Shown: positions 40,437 to 49,818 of the stretch, one piece after another
Layout of the letters: every line of letters begins with the position of its first letter
Position numbering within the stretch: the stretch's first letter is position 1
Source: Protoeuglena noctilucae
Taxonomy: Eukaryota
DNA length: 64,000 nt
Assembly (NCBI GenBank): GCA_958009085.1
Contig: OY253688.1
Location: 310,001 to 374,000 of the forward strand
Direction of reading: 5' to 3'
The notes under the pieces: model-generated
Told to the model about the DNA's origin: nothing
Databases searched by the model: none
The model's input: only the letters and a program-made list of their open reading frames with translations
Program-made: the position numbers and the translations under genes

Positions 40437-41185
40437 GGGCATCACATGGCGGGAAGCCTCGTAGGTTCGAATCCTACCGACGTCGTTGCCATGACGTCGT
40501 GGCCGATCCATTATGGCGCGTGACTCGAACTTTTTATGCTTCTGTTGGATGCGTAACAGACGAGAGACGCGCGCGGGACAGTCGGGGGACGCGCGCGGGA
40601 CCGGCGGGAGGCGGATTAGGCGCGCGGGCAGCAGCATGCCAGGTCAGGCGCGCAGGTGTGCGGGATGCCCCGGAGAGGCCGGAACGCGACGGAAGATGAT
40701 CATCGGGACGCGGAGACGGCGCGGCGCGAGCGCGGGCTGCGGTTTTGGGCGCGGGGGAGTGCCCACTGGCGCGCCGCTGCAGGGACGAGGTCGCGGCGGA
40801 AGGAGGGGCTCGGTGCGCGGGTGGGGCTGATTGATCGAGACGTCGATTGTGGAAAAGCGCATATGAGGGCCGGACGGGCGGCGCGCGGCCCGAGGGAAGC
40901 GGTTTTCGTATTGGCGCAGCAGCGGGCAGCCGCACCCGACGACAGAGATGGCGCCGGGCGCCGCGGGTCCCGCGGAGGGCCAGAAGGCGCTGAAGGCGAG
41001 CGCGCGGGTCCGGGGGCCGTGCGCGGGACGCCCTGCTGTTTCCGGAGCCCCTGTGCTAGGTGCTCCTGCGGGACGACGCCCGCAGGCGGCGGAGCGGGCG
41101 AGCTGGCGGTGGAGGTGGGCGCGCGAGCGCCTGCACGTGTCGCTGCATGACGCGGTGGTTGAGGTGGAGGAGGCCGAGGGGCCCA
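40437..41185 (+). repeat. Left arm of a ~745-bp inverted duplication
   Basis: Near-identical reverse complement of 44618-45360. Visible differences are a 5-bp indel near 40720 and a few substitutions concentrated in the tRNA part. Confidence 0.95.
40441..40529 (+). pseudogene. Degenerate copy of the permuted tRNA-Ser(CGA)
   Basis: 3' half 40441-40485, spacer TTGCCAT, 5' half 40493-40529, T5 at 40531-40535. The D-loop AGCGGTTA has become ATCCATTA (G18/G19 lost), there is a C27-A43 mismatch, and no TATA lies upstream. Confidence 0.8.
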
Positions 41186-43524: not shown

Positions 43525-44617
43525 GATAATGATGATGAGCAATTCAACAGTCGAGGGGTGCTATGACTCTCAGAGCCACGCCTTGCGGCAGAAGTGCCGT
43601 CCCCCGGAGCAGCTGACACCCCGGGGTTTCCATCGTTGCAGTGCATCGGCACTAAGACCCGCCCCCGCTAGGTTGCCCCACCCTAAGGCAAAGGGGTCGC
43701 CCACCCCGGGTTCTTGCACCCCTAGCCCCCTCGCTGCGCCCTAAGGCCGAATCGCCGTCCCAGAGTGGGACGTTGCAGCCGCGGGGCCCCTCCGTGGATG
43801 ATGATGTGCAGTTCAATAGCTGAGGGTGCTGAGGTCCATCAGGATCCTCGCCGCACGAGCTAGGCCCGCGCGACAGGGGCGCCTTCCCCCGGAGCTGCCG
43901 CACCCCGGGGGTTCCATTATCGCAGTGCATATGGCACTTGGCCCGCCCCCGCTAGGTCCCCCCACCCTAAGGCTATGGGGCCGCCGCCCCGGGCTCCAGC
44001 GCCCCTAGCCCCTTCGCCGAACCGCCGCCCCTGCCGGGACGAGCAACCGCAGGATGCCACGCAAGCGGGCCCCTGGGTACAAATACAACAGCAAAGCAAC
44101 GAAGCAGAGACAAGCCCCCATGCCGCGGCGCAGAGCACTTTCGCCCCATGCTAACAACGGACCCCACCCTGGTCCCACCGGCGCGGTCCCCGCGTCCCGC
44201 CGGTCGCTCTGCGTCCCCGTCACGAAAGCCTGCCGTCCCTCTGCACGCACACAGCGCGCAGCGCCCCGAAAGCCCCCCTAGACTCGGGGGCGCGGCTTGT
44301 CCCGACCAGCAGAACTCGAGCGCGTCGTGCTGCCGCCTGGCGCCTGCCAGGGGATATGCGACCGCCTCAGCCGTCGCGAATGCACGCAAAACACCCAACC
44401 GCACCCCCTCGCCAACTCGCCAGCCTCCACCTTGGCCAAACCACCGCCGAACCACCGCACTGCGCGCCACCGCGCCATTTTTTGTGAACCGGCTCTTCGT
44501 CACCGGCCATAAAGGCGCGGTGTCCAGAGGGCGCCACGAGGAGGCGGCCGGCGGATCGCGCCATCGCGCGTCCGAGTCCCCCCTCCGTGGAGACCCCCGG
44601 GCGTCTATTACAAAAGG
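43525..44617 (-). mobile_element. Outer (CAT)n-tailed non-LTR/SINE-like insertion with a 13-bp TSD
   Basis: TGGGCCCCTCGGC at 43512-43524 and 44618-44630. The 3' end reads CTGTTGAATTGCTCATCATCATTATC. Homology with the left arm resumes beyond it (43487-43524 vs 41173-41211). Confidence 0.7.
43799..44579 (-). mobile_element. Inner nested copy of the same family with a 12-bp TSD
   Basis: CCCCTCCGTGGA at 43787-43798 and 44580-44591. The 3' end reads CTATTGAACTGCACATCATCAT. 43800-44017 aligns with 43530-43733. Confidence 0.7.
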
Positions 44618-45262
44618 TGGGCCCCTCGGCCTCCTCCACCTCAACCACCGCGTCATGCAGCGACACGTGCAGGCGCTCGCGCGCCCACCTCCACCGCCAG
44701 CTCGCCCGCTCCGCCGCCTGCGGGCGTCGTCCCGCAGGAGCACCTAGCACAGGGGCTCCGGAAACAGCAGGGCGTCCCGCGCACGGCCCCCGGACCCGCG
44801 CGCTCGCCTTCAGCGCCTTCTGGCCCTCCGCGGGACCCGCGGCGCCCGGCGCCATCTCTGTCGTCGGGTGCGGCTGCCCGCTGCTGCGCCAATACGAAAA
44901 CCGCTTCCCTCGGGCCGCGCGCCGCCCGTCCGGCCCTCATATGCGCTTTTCCGCAATCGACGTCTCGATCAATCAGCCCCACCCGCGCACCGAGCCCCTC
45001 CTTCCGCCGCGACCTCGTCCCTGCAGCGGCGCGCCAGTGGGCACTCCCCCGCGCCCAAAACCGCAGCCCGCGCTCGCGCCGTCTCCGCGTCCCGATGATC
45101 ATCTTCCGTCGCGTTCCGGCCTCTCCGGGGCATCCCGCACACCTGCGCGCCTGACCTGGCATGCTGCTGCCCGCGCGCCTAATCCGCCTCCCGCCGGTCC
45201 CGCGCGCGTCCCCCGACTGTCCCGCGCGCGTCTCTCGTCTGTTACGCATCCAACAGAAGCAT

Positions 45263-45267
45263 AAAAA
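45263..45267 (-). terminator. Pol III T5 terminator of the permuted tRNA
   Basis: TTTTT begins one base after A37 of the 5' half. Confidence 0.75.
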
Positions 45268-45268
45268 G

Positions 45269-45356
45269 TTCGAGTCACGCGCCATAACCGCTCGGCCACG
45301 ACGTCATAGCAACGACGTCGGTAGGATTCGAACCTACGAGGCTTCCGCCACGTGAT
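45269..45356 (-). tRNA. Circularly permuted tRNA-Ser(CGA), split at 37/38
   Basis: Minus strand: 3' half ATCACG-T-GGCGGAAGCC-TC-GTAGG-TTCGAAT-CCTAC-CGACGTC-G (45356-45313), spacer TTGCTAT, 5' half GACGTCG-TG-GCCG-AGCGGTTA-TGGC-G-CGTGA-CTCGAA (45305-45269). Rejoined it gives an 81-nt cloverleaf with all stems paired, a long variable arm and G73. Confidence 0.95.
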
Positions 45357-45408
45357 GCCCGCAGAGAGGTGATTGACACTACTGCTAGCATTGCTATGCG
45401 AATCTTGG

Positions 45409-45415
45409 ATTTATA
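45409..45415 (-). promoter_or_regulatory. TATA box upstream of the permuted tRNA
   Basis: TATAAAT lies 53-59 nt upstream of the 3' half in an otherwise GC-rich context. CAA triplets at 45393 and 45375 lie downstream of it. Confidence 0.55.
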
Positions 45416-45813
45416 TTCCCGCAACGTGCCTCCGTGATGAATTATTCCTGGAAATCCCCGGCACGCACCCCTGAAGGCGTCCACCGCGGCCCGGTTGGTC
45501 TGGCTTGACATTGCAACCTTCGGAGCTACCGGCCGGCGGCACCCGGGCGGCCTACTGCGCTCCGCACGACGCGGAAGCCCTCTGAACCTGGCGCAGCGGG
45601 CACCTGACATGTGGGGCCACGTAGGTACGTTTTACGTGCGTGGGCGCTACCCGTCGATCCCCGGAACATCATGATATTTCCTTAAACCGCGTTTCCGCTG
45701 CATTTCGCCGCCGTTTAAGCGCGCACACCCCCGCACATTTGACCGAGCAGCCCACGGGCTTCATCGTGATTGCTCCCTCCCCGCGCCCATCCCCGACGAA
45801 CCAAGTGATTACC

Positions 45814-46014
45814 ATGGGCCACGCGGGCCGGAGGAGTTCGACCCGGTCGCACACCTACGCGCACCACTCGACGAGCGGGAACTACACGACGCACATCCAC
45901 TTCCCCAGCCTGTCGACCGTGTCTGGGCGCGCGATCGTCGCGTGCATCGCCGTGTTCGTCGTCCTCATGCTCATCATCGCCATCTTCCTCGCCTGCCGCC
46001 GTCGCAGGCGCTGA
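45814..46014 (+). CDS. Small (66 aa) single-pass membrane protein
   Basis: ACCATGG start context, C-rich third codon positions and the TM helix 'AIVACIAVFVVLMLIIAIFLAC' followed by RRRRR. Confidence 0.5.
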   Translation: MGHAGRRSSTRSHTYAHHSTSGNYTTHIHFPSLSTVSGRAIVACIAVFVVLMLIIAIFLACRRRRR

Positions 46015-46135
46015 GGGCCACCCCAGGTGATTGAATCCCGACGCGCGGCGCTTGCGTGGTCGCATGCTCGCCACCGAGACAAGATGACAACAACCCCACC
46101 CCCCCCGTTCTTGCAGAAACGCTTCAAACAGCTAG

Positions 46136-47674
46136 TCAGCAAAACAGCCGCACGCACGCGGCGGCCGACAGGGCGGCGGTGGCCGAGGCGCTGACGAGGT
46201 TGACGGCGTTGTTGTCGAGGAGGTGGGAGCCGGAGATGCGCACCACGTGGTCGCCGGGCCGGCTCGTGACCTTGCGCCGGCGGACGTCGTAGCCCGAGAA
46301 CTGCACCGTGGCCCCGAGCGCCGAGTCGACCAGGGACCCCGCCAGCCCGGACGCGAGGCCGACCCCGGCGACGCCGAGGGCCTGGGCGGCGACGGCCGGG
46401 CGCGAGGCCCCCGGCGCCAGGTACGAGGCGGCGGCGAAGAGGCCCCCGACGAAGAGGCCGCCCAGCGCGCTCATGGCCAGGCCCAGCGCCGTCACCCCGC
46501 CATTCGTGCCGCGCCGCACGGGACTGCGGCCGGGGGTGTGCCGCGGGGTCGGGCGCGCCCAACCCCATCCCCGCCACGGGGATGCCCCCCCACCCACCCG
46601 CAGCAGCGGCCCCTCACCGCAGGGTCGTGATGAGGCGGGGCTCGGCGGTGCTGAGGACGCCGACCTCGGACGCCCACGTGTCGCCGCAGCAGCAGGCGTA
46701 GTAGCCCAGGACGCCGCCCCAGAGCGCCGTGCTGACCGCGGGCGTCAGGCCGCCCGTGCCCGAGCCCAGGGGGACCTCCCCGGCGCCGAGGGCCCAGGCC
46801 GCCACCGCCAGCGCGGTGGGGACGGCCGAGTTGCAAAAGACCTGGACCCAGCTGCGCCCGCCCCCGGCGACGTACTCGTCGCCGACGTCCTGCTTGAACG
46901 TCTGCGCCATCTTGGTCAGGGCCGACGCGGACAGGTAAAAGCCGATCAGCGACCAGGCCGCGCGGGCCGAGGCGAACAGCGACAGCCCGCCGACCAGCAG
47001 GGCCGCGGCGGCGCCGGACGAGTCGAGGCTCCCCTTCCTGGCGCCGTCGACCGCCAGGCCCAGGGCGCCCGCCGCGCTGACCACGGCCCGCGCAGGCACG
47101 GGCAGGTACTGGATCGCCAGCAGCGCCGCGAGCGTGACCGCGAGCCGCGCGATCGTCGAGGCGGCTGCGGGGGCGCGGCCGGTCTCGCTCTCCTCGCGCG
47201 CCAAAGCCGACGCCTGCCATGCCTCCCCCCCCACCCCCCCCCCCCCCCCAACGCAAGCAGCACTCGCCTGCCATGGCGAGGACGATGAGGCGCTGGTGCC
47301 GGTGTAGGAACGGCTCCTTGCTCGCGCTCTCCAGCTGCGACAGCTCCTCCAGGTTCACCTCCGCCGCATCCACCGCGTCCTGCGGTGGTGGACCCCCCCA
47401 TGCGCGGTCGCCCTAACAACCCCCCCGGGAGCGGCCCGCCGGAGCCTCGACGGGACCTCACCTTCGCCCGCCGCAAAGCCTCATCGATGACTTGCTGCGG
47501 TGTCTTCTCCTCGGGCCCCGGTCCCCCGGGCCGGGGCGACACGAGGCTGGAATCCGCAGCTGCACGGGGGAGGGAGGGCGGACGGGGGCAGCGGAGGCCG
47601 CGAAGGAGCCCCCCGGACGGCTTGGAAGCGGACGCGAGGGTTTTGTTGCCGGAGACCCGCGCCGGAGCGAGCAT
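46136..47674 (-). CDS. TMEM19/DUF92 family membrane protein (PGR/VTE6 superfamily)
   Basis: 'RKGSLDSSGA', 'GGGRSWVQVFCN', 'YYACCCGDTWASEVGVLS', 'GTNGGVT', 'GSLVDSALGATVQ' and 'LDNNAVN'. Confidence 0.9.
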
Positions 47675-48158: not shown

Positions 48159-49818
48159 CTACAACAGCTCGGGGTTCTCCAGCGCGTCCATCTCCACCCG
48201 GTTGAGGTCGTCAAAGTACGGGTGCTCCAGGGCGTCCTGCGACGGCGTCACATGTTGTGTCGGTGCGGCCAAGGCCACGCGCTTCTGCGGGAGAAAGGTT
48301 CCCCCCGGCTGGCCCCGAACCGTCACCTTGGCCGAGATGCGCTTGGCCGGGTCGTAGTCGAACATCTTGGCCAGCAGGTCCAGGCCGGCCGGCTCGAGGT
48401 TGGGGAAGTACCGCGTCAGGTCGGCCGGCTTCCAGGAGGGGTACTCGTGCCAGTCCCGCAGCTGCGGGGGCGTCGCGGTGCGGGGACGTCAACTCAGCGT
48501 GCGGGCGGCCGGGGCCGGGGCGCCCCAGGTGAGGGGCGATGTGATCCACCCTCACACCTTGGAGACCCCGGGCCAGACGCGGTCGTCCGGGGTGCCCAGG
48601 AGCTTGAATACATGCAGGAGCTGCTGGAACTCGGAGTCCCCGGGGAAGAGCGGGGCCTTGCGGGCCAGCTCGGCGAAGATGCACCCCACGGACCACATGT
48701 CGACCGGGCAGCCATAGTGCGAGGCCCCCAGGAGCACCTCCGGGGCCCTGCGAGCGGGCCGCCGCCGGGAGCTGAGAGCTGTCGACGCGCAGCGGAGGCC
48801 GAGCTGCGGGCCGCGTGGGCGGGCGGGGCACTCGCACCTGTACCACAGCGTGACGATCTCGTGGGTGTACGACTTGATGGGGATGGAGAAGGCCCGACCC
48901 AGCCCGAGGTCGGCGACCTTCAGGATCGGGACGCGGCCCGAGTCGTCGATGAGCAGGTTCTGCGGCTTCAGGTCCCGGTGCATGACGCCGTGGCGGTGGC
49001 AGTGCGCGACCCCCCGGAGCAGCTGGAACATGAGCTGCTTGATGAGCAGCCGGTCCAGCGGATGCTGCGAGGGACGCGGAATCGATCGCCGCTTGTCGGG
49101 TCCCACAGCCCAGCGGCCCAGCAACCCCGCGCTGCCCCCCTCGCCCCACCTGGGGCCCCTTTCCGTTCCGGTCCATGTACTTCTTCAGGTCCGTCGTGAG
49201 GTACTCGAAGACCAGGTACAGCACGGGCTTGGCGTTCTCCTCGACGTGCTCGACGCACAGGAGCTTGACAACGTGGTTGGACTCGGACAACATCTGCAGC
49301 AGCGAGACCTCGCGCAGCGCCGTCGAAGGGACGCCCTCCTCCTCCATCTGCGGGGTGCGCGGGGGGCAGGCCGTCTCCCCGCCGGGCCCGGGCGCGCGAT
49401 GGCTGGGAGGCCGACCGCTGGGAGCGCGCGGAGGCCCGCGCTGGGCAGCCCAAGCGCTCTCAGCAAACGAAACCGTTGTTTTGAGCCGGCTCAACGCATG
49501 TCCCCGCTCTCGCGGCCCGGGACGCGCGCGCGGGCGGGCGCGACAGCTCCCGGGTGTTATTCAAACCCCGCGCCCGGGCCCGTCCTCCGCGCGGCCGCAG
49601 GGTCCGCGAAGGACGGCCGCTCCCGGCGTTCCTCGCGGCGGGGGCCAGCCAGCCCGCGGGCGAGGGCGCGGGCGGGGAGCGGGGCCCTGCCAAGCGCCGC
49701 GCACCTCGAGCCGGGTCTTCTTCAGCGCCACCAGGCGGCCGGTGCGCTTGCACCGCGCCTTGTAGACCTTTCCATACGTCCCCTCGCCGATCTTCTCCAG
49801 CTTCTCGTACTGATCCAT
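48159..49818 (-). CDS. CDKB1: Cyclin-dependent kinase B
   Basis: '[21 protein letters not shown]', '[19 protein letters not shown]', '[10 protein letters not shown]' and '[25 protein letters not shown]'. Confidence 0.97.

Follow-up and report, generated by a model that had tools for sequence, protein, structure and literature searches.

A probable circularly permuted nuclear tRNA-Ser(CGA) gene beside an apparently decayed inverted twin in a marine green alga

Permuted transfer RNA (tRNA) genes are rare. In the red alga Cyanidioschyzon merolae, maturation of such genes through a circular RNA has been shown (Soma et al. 2007, as cited in PMC3978253), and Table 1 of PMC3978253 lists Ser(CGA) genes of type II with spacers of 12 nucleotides (nt) in Ostreococcus lucimarinus, 28 nt in O. 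tauri, 19 nt in Micromonas pusilla, 16 nt in Micromonas RCC299 and 5 nt in the nucleomorph of Bigelowiella natans, the published spacers ranging from 1 to 74 nt. For Ostreococcus, Micromonas and chlorarachniophyte nucleomorphs, permuted trnS(CGA) genes split at 37/38 have thus been published before. Here, we describe a 64,000-nt stretch of DNA (contig OY253688.1, positions 310,001 to 374,000; hereafter the window, to which all coordinates refer unless stated otherwise) that carries what we regard, with a probability of roughly 0.85, as a working circularly permuted nuclear tRNA-Ser(CGA) gene of type II with a 37/38 junction (copy 1; 45415..45263, minus strand). Relative to the described cases, what is new is a likely different lineage, a 7-nt spacer combined with a terminator directly after A37, and an inverted, decayed twin of the gene (copy 2).

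On the minus strand, copy 1 places tRNA positions 38-73 first, followed by a 7-nt spacer, positions 1-37 and CTTTTT. Read in this direction, the locus begins with a TATA-like element, TATAAAT (45409..45415), which precedes the first coding base by 53-59 nt. The upstream region that follows (45357..45408) would contain the transcription start and closes as a 5' leader ending in GGGC, of which the G at position -3 faces C32. The 3' half (positions 38-73; 45313..45356, 44 nt) comprises the 3' strand of the anticodon stem, a 13-nt variable arm, the T arm with its B box (GGTTCGAATCC), the 3' strand of the acceptor stem and G73, after which no CCA is encoded. The spacer TTGCTAT (45306..45312, 7 nt) separates G73 from G1. 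The 5' half (positions 1-37; 45269..45305, 37 nt) comprises the 5' strand of the acceptor stem, the D arm with its A box (TGGCCGAGCGG) and both G18 and G19, the 5' strand of the anticodon stem and the loop CU-CGA-A, so that in native order the B box precedes the A box. The CTTTTT directly after A37 (45263..45268) is likely to provide the RNA polymerase III terminator together with a very short trailer, in keeping with how this polymerase terminates and with PMC3978253.

Once the halves are joined, the acceptor (7/7), anticodon (5/5) and T (5/5) stems are completely paired, GGC pairs with GCC in the variable arm, and the D stem consists of three Watson-Crick pairs plus G13-U22; U33, the T loop, G18/G19 and G73 are all kept. 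The 3' half lies upstream of the 5' half and the two acceptor strands are adjacent across a short spacer, which is the type II arrangement, and the gene is framed by an upstream TATA-like, AT-rich region and a downstream T stretch. An earlier note on this DNA had claimed the order of the halves, the 7-nt spacer and the CTTTTT, the pairing of the acceptor, D, anticodon, variable and T stems together with G73, and a B box before the A box below an upstream TATAAAT. Its coordinates are correct on the minus strand, every stem pairs as claimed, and both promoter features are present (TATAAAT at 45415..45409).

The permuted trnS(CGA) genes of Ostreococcus and Micromonas, which the earlier note had named and which Table 1 of PMC3978253 indeed lists together with the Bigelowiella nucleomorph, share with copy 1 the isoacceptor, the junction and the lack of an intron. 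As in copy 1, G73 and G1 are separated by a short spacer, AT-rich or TATA-like sequence lies upstream, and a T run lies downstream. They differ in the length of the spacer, which is 7 nt here and 12, 28, 19 and 16 nt there. The locus described here further departs from the Ostreococcus/Micromonas type in its apparently decayed inverted twin 4.7 kb away and in a host whose B-type cyclin-dependent kinase (CDK), CDKB, falls apart from those of Bathycoccus and Mantoniella. The nucleomorphs of B. natans and Amorphochlora amoebiformis, for which permuted trnS(CGA) and trnS(AGA) are described, have in common with copy 1 the isoacceptor, the split at 37/38 and a spacer that is very short (5 nt against 7 nt here). 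These are, however, tiny AT-rich relic nuclei, whereas copy 1 resides in an intron-rich nuclear region of ~67% GC. PMC4494063, the source for the A. amoebiformis nucleomorph, argues that the permuted gene was present even in the green ancestor of chlorarachniophyte plastids.

The C. merolae genes, according to PMC3978253, resemble copy 1 in an upstream TATA-like element, a downstream T stretch and a B box that precedes the A box, and the Gly(CCC) genes among them have 7-nt spacers, as here. In contrast to copy 1, they belong to a red alga, have junctions at 20/21, 37/38, 50/51 and 59/60 and in some cases introns, and do not include a permuted Ser gene among those listed in that source. Seven permuted genes are reported for Bathycoccus prasinos and a permuted tRNA for the prasinoviruses BpV1 and BpV2 (PMC3673656), and permuted tRNA genes are reported for Auxenochlorella (PMC12633428). 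Going by these accounts, the arrangement reaches beyond Ostreococcus and Micromonas in green algae and viruses. The only permuted nuclear genes that a 2026 review (PMC13578239) mentions in its available text are those of O. tauri, C. merolae and the B. natans nucleomorph, besides some archaea, and the literature on permuted tRNA contained no lineage beyond those above among the matches listed.

In its native order, copy 1 is passed over by the standard tools. ARAGORN found no gene in the whole 64-kb window, Rfam gave no match at gathering score, and the tRNA model RF00005 (gathering score 29 bits) did not match the locus even at E<=10 in a permissive scan of 45200-45480, in which the two matches were YrlA (RF02553) and a 17-nt T-arm look-alike. 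When the halves were rejoined by script, ARAGORN called a tRNA-Ser(cga) over [1,81] of the 81 nt with a full cloverleaf and a long variable arm, and rejoined copy 1 was still called at 124% of the default threshold. The cloverleaf has an energy of -30.4 kcal/mol, compared with a minimum free energy of -32.5 kcal/mol. Both outcomes agree with the earlier note, which had predicted the miss by standard scanners and had proposed swapping the halves in silico. Because permuted genes escape routine annotation, a genome that depends on one looks as if it were without a UCG decoder.

The specificity of this call was gauged by a window-wide search for permuted genes, in which a T loop had to precede a closed acceptor hairpin of 7 bp with a spacer of 0-80 nt, and every split point was tried. 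It yielded 30 candidates and two loci with ARAGORN calls, copy 1 in 475 length combinations and copy 2 in 46. The control of 30 dinucleotide shuffles gave 597 candidates and eight called loci, none of them in more than six length combinations.

Relatives with the same architecture are found in metagenomes. A pattern in which a gap of 18-48 nt separates a T loop from a class II D arm and a CUCGAA loop, searched in JGI metagenome contigs, returned three loci, all of them permuted Ser(CGA) genes with a 37/38 junction: L001 (1979-2086 of its contig, spacer 27 nt), L002 (2094-2001, minus strand, spacer 13 nt) and L003 (1979-2083, spacer 24 nt). The same pattern had no match in 596 Gb of prokaryote genomes. 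In each of the three, ARAGORN detected no gene natively and an 81-nt tRNA-Ser(cga) once the halves were rejoined, at up to 120% of threshold. About 80 nt of upstream sequence are conserved among them, and their T run follows ~25 nt after A37, whereas it stands directly after A37 in copy 1.

Between copy 1 and this environmental set, 9 of 21 stem pairs carry double compensatory changes (acceptor 4/7, anticodon 4/5, T 1/5), two further pairs show single G-U changes, and, with the usual exception of 13:22, every pair is intact. Stem pairs were counted by tRNA position, and the MAFFT alignments, in which a strand of the anticodon stem was shifted by one base, were left unused for this purpose. The tRNAs of L001-L003 are nearly identical to each other and hence amount essentially to one independent comparison. 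Copy 1 and the environmental genes have in common the isoacceptor, the junction, the long variable arm and G73, and they covary in a structure-preserving manner, as orthologues do. At the level of sequence, this covariation would be compatible with common descent as well as with a repeated origin of permuted Ser(CGA) genes.

TATAAA occurs at three sites in the window, both strands considered, where 0.45 are expected, and three sites were reached in 0 of 100 shuffles. One of the three lies 53-59 nt upstream of copy 1 on the matching strand, and the 60-nt bins at this position have 42-43% GC, the most AT-rich nearby, compared with ~67% for the window. As to the earlier proposal that the leader G(-3) can pair with C32, as the anticodon-intron (A-I) pair, the pairing option is present, and the G three nt before A38 and C32 are kept in all five permuted Ser(CGA) sequences (copies 1 and 2 and L001-L003). 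The pair following G(-3):C32 is U33-G in copy 1 and U33-A in the others compared, and the helix adjoining the A-I pair has 2 bp in copy 1 (C32-G, U33-G) and 3 bp in L001-L003.

From the observed anatomy, covariation and promoter and terminator motifs we infer that copy 1 is functional, and we likewise infer the steps of its processing, which are taken from published work on Cyanidioschyzon and green algae as described in PMC3978253. Briefly, RNA polymerase III would start downstream of the TATA-like element and stop at the T5 run just after A37; transcription would depend on the upstream TATA, because the order of the A and B boxes is unsuitable for TFIIIC (PMC3978253). The transcript could then fold such that the acceptor stem forms a closed hairpin over the 7-nt spacer and the transcript ends form the anticodon stem. 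The tRNA splicing endonuclease would trim the leader before A38, aided by G(-3):C32, and the trailer after A37, whereupon a ligase would join A37 to A38 and release an 88-nt circle (81+7). RNase P and tRNase Z would subsequently open the circle at the acceptor stem, discarding the spacer, and addition of CCA would give an 81-nt tRNA that reads UCG. In 12 open frames with Pfam support, a sample that includes some non-exon sequence, 43 of 186 serine codons are UCG. With UCG at about a quarter of the sampled serine codons, some tRNA has to decode it, and in principle a Ser(UGA) tRNA could do so by wobble.

The second permuted copy, which the earlier note had missed, lies on the plus strand (40441..40529; 40441..40535 with its CTTTTT), 4.7 kb from copy 1. 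It consists of a 3' half of 45 nt (40441-40485), a spacer (40486-40492), a 5' half (40493-40529) and CTTTTT (40530-40535). The two genes sit at the outer ends of an inverted repeat of ~0.73 kb, of which the left arm (40452..41185) ends inside copy 2 and the right arm (44618..45346) inside copy 1; the arms are 99-100% identical, with 3432 nt between them. Within the 88-nt gene the copies differ at six sites. Copy 2 carries G43A, resulting in a C27-A43 mismatch in the anticodon stem, an extra G in the variable loop, a T>C change in the spacer and the D-loop changes G15T, G18C and G19A. In the 651 nt downstream, compared with the six differences in the gene, the arms differ by two events, a 5-nt CGCGC-type indel (near 45081/40717) and a substitution (44953/40850) (Fisher p=5.6e-5). 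Upstream of the gene the similarity of the copies fades within ~25 nt, and copy 2 is without a TATA. When the ARAGORN threshold is raised, copy 2 is no longer called above 104% of the default, whereas copy 1 is still called at 124%. The contrast between six differences in the gene and two downstream suggests that copy 1 is under constraint and copy 2 is not. Judged by its sequence, copy 2 is probably a pseudogene and most likely dead. The near-identity of the inner arms may reflect either a recent duplication or gene conversion.

Public data over the region comprise 12 rows from three studies (marine metagenomes, metatranscriptomes and material coded 'organism A'), all of them contigs. Several side observations on the inverted repeat come from these contigs and from the window itself. 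In the contig set X2, record 15 carries right-arm variants beside the tRNA sequence of copy 1. At the inner edge of the right arm, 44581-44619, X2 contig depth is 363-779 compared with ~21-32 nearby, and in all four runs many contigs have loose ends on both sides of this segment, which looks like a dispersed short repeat. Between the large arms there are two more inverted repeats, 41594-41707/41753-41866 (114 nt, 88%) and 42422-42486/42507-42571 (65 nt, 80%), and the open reading frames between the arms had no Pfam domain.

As to the gene itself, two overlapping X2 contigs confirm how the halves are ordered. Record 15 (44686-45346) runs without a break through the 5' half, the spacer and the T arm, and record 16 (45321-46300) continues from the T arm through the leader into the DNA upstream. 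X2 is possibly the source data of the window and is therefore not counted as independent support. Other results weigh against a working copy 1. Contigs of four runs aligned to 44300-46300 contained no joints, and the RNA contigs leave 45305-45986 uncovered. One RNA contig (X9 record 21) ends at 45287, one base before the first site that distinguishes the copies, and we read this end as a branch in the assembly graph, not as a transcript end. A further X2 contig of 2442 nt (record 17) matches 45321-45359 with two differences and no gap and diverges on both sides. By script, a contiguous tRNA-Ser gene with GAA before A38 yields exactly this pattern, whereas copy 2 gives 11 mismatches ungapped; record 17 thus fits a contiguous tRNA-Ser gene that would have a different acceptor stem. 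Since its match starts at 45321, such a gene would be another Ser-type gene and not the conventional twin of copy 1. The scan for Ser(CGA) covers the 64-kb window, and a conventional Ser(CGA) gene may lie elsewhere. Moreover, the tRNA call for rejoined copy 1 comes from ARAGORN and not from a covariance model. A full bulge-helix-bulge or hBH motif is not evident beside the A-I pair of copy 1. The fold of the 122-nt putative precursor recovers the T arm and the acceptor hairpin only and is not better than shuffles (z=-0.81), and a second fold of a putative precursor was likewise non-discriminating (z=-0.94).

These points bear most directly on the proposal that both copies are dead relics, derived either by tandem duplication of an intron-containing tRNA-Ser gene or from permuted genes that have been retired, in which case another tRNA would read UCG. 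We consider this improbable. It would be in line with contigs that contain no joints over copy 1, with the further Ser-like locus represented by record 17, with the position of the gene in a duplicated, apparently unstable region and with one copy that is clearly decaying. Yet all stems of copy 1 are intact and its G18/G19, U33, T loop and G73 are retained, its ARAGORN score is at least that of the environmental orthologues (124% vs 120%), its terminator stands exactly at A37+1 and a rare TATA lies upstream, while the twin illustrates how decay looks over the same period. Much less probable still is that the locus specifies a structured, tRNA-like RNA with another job, such as a Y-RNA-like molecule whose acceptor stem stays closed and which is never made into a tRNA. 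This idea draws on the YrlA match, which runs end to end over the model (1-114) at 20.5 bits and E=0.046. The match is informative, because YrlA is the sole Rfam model ordered T arm, closed acceptor-like stem, D arm, and YrlA RNAs were likened to permuted tRNAs by those who described them (bioRxiv 10.1101/312249). It is not evidence for a Y RNA: the score is far under the gathering score of 69, and YrlA RNAs, despite the shared order, are bacterial, bind Ro60 and have no anticodon loop to rebuild. Copy 1, in contrast, has a proper anticodon loop with CGA that is split exactly at 37/38, it bears the identity elements of a serine tRNA, and it has orthologues with the permuted trnS(CGA) design known from the literature.

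An assembly artefact, in which the duplicate of a conventional tRNA-Ser gene was mis-joined or falsely inverted, is also very hard to credit, even though copy 1 stands where an inverted repeat with arms of 99-100% identity ends and the X2 contigs break inside the gene (45321-45346). Records 15 and 16 overlap across the gene, with the proviso on the independence of X2 made above; the six differences between the two copies are not expected from a false duplication, and three unrelated metagenome contigs display the same architecture. We attach a similarly low likelihood to separate transcription of the halves and joining in trans, as in the split tRNAs that occur in some archaea (PMC3218864), which would dispense with a circular intermediate. 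Nothing specific speaks in favour of it, and the halves are 7 nt apart, with neither a terminator behind G73 nor anything promoter-like ahead of G1. All known eukaryotic cases covered in PMC3978253 use one transcript. A working permuted gene, transcribed as a whole, best accommodates these observations.

The host of this gene is a marine green alga, and probably not a mamiellophyte, as judged from the sequence of its neighbourhood. In the ~67% GC window, introns split the genes for Sir2, Ssu72 and an ABC transporter as well as two kinase fragments. The B-type CDK gene (48555-49800, minus strand), also intron-split, has the motifs GEGTYG, PSTALRE and HRDLKP, of which PSTALRE is a hallmark of green-algal B-type CDKs. 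The closest relatives of this CDK are environmental sequences (68-77% identity), environmental proteins at 68-69% being the best non-self matches, and the members of its cluster come from ENA and Logan assemblies only, none from NCBI, EukProt or MMETSP. Given this cluster, Prasinoderma coloniale, considered as a host on GC content only (69.8% in PMC7455551, compared with ~67% here), is not supported. Identities to all named sequences range from 57 to 65%, including Tetraselmis (62-65%), Bathycoccus (61%), Mantoniella (62%), the Picocystis cluster (61%), Chlamydomonas (62%), Chlorella (61%) and Chara (62%).

In a CDKB tree of 30 rows (IQ-TREE, LG+C20), the window sequence and two environmental sequences form a clade of their own outside all named groups (support 100/92). 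An approximately unbiased (AU) test rejects grouping of this clade with the Mamiellophyceae rows, Bathycoccus and Mantoniella (p=0.002), in a tree of one gene that has 49% of columns filled for the window and a long branch, the tested group having been chosen after the first tree. The further algal lineage suggested in the earlier note is favoured by the single-gene CDKB tree and the AU test. Two other coding regions were uninformative for the lineage, namely an open reading frame with a BFN domain, which had one match (Coccomyxa, 53% identity over 24% of the query), and an exon of the ABC transporter, which had three distant matches. It is tempting to go further and to place the host clade outside Mamiellophyceae, Trebouxiophyceae, Chlorophyceae, Chlorodendrophyceae, Picocystis and streptophytes, following the CDKB tree, with a permuted trnS(CGA) that is old and has been vertically kept in much of the green lineage. 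We put this forward tentatively and consider it somewhat doubtful.

If one more lineage has this isoacceptor split at the identical position, a single ancient origin in green algae becomes likelier than repeated invention. If the host is indeed outside Mamiellophyceae, the permuted trnS(CGA) would not be a quirk of Mamiellophyceae and nucleomorphs. The host would be a new organism in which to study the circular-intermediate pathway, and an intact and a decayed gene that differ at known sites offer a built-in control for expression studies. Under the tentative reading of an old, vertically kept gene, the intact copy 1 next to its freshly decaying twin would moreover be a rare instance in nature of the copying and loss of such genes.

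A minor observation on permuted-like elements comes from viral contigs. There, a general pattern of 'T loop ... D arm' was unspecific, 107 of 121 loci being ordinary tandem tRNA genes. At four of the 121 loci (L017, 248-379; L019, 256-379; L034, 240-379; L063, 241-377) it marked an element missed by both ARAGORN and the Rfam tRNA model. These are IMG/VR contigs of 34-42% GC, two of them giant-virus metagenome-assembled genomes, and the elements reside inside dense tRNA clusters. Each combines a T arm and a class II D arm with a closed acceptor hairpin, in which 6-7 of 7 pairs form and the spacer is 3-5 nt, and the elements also have an 8-bp closing helix with two compensated pairs. The hairpin upstream in L063 can be read as the anticodon arm of Leu(UAA), and the junction would then lie near 26/27.

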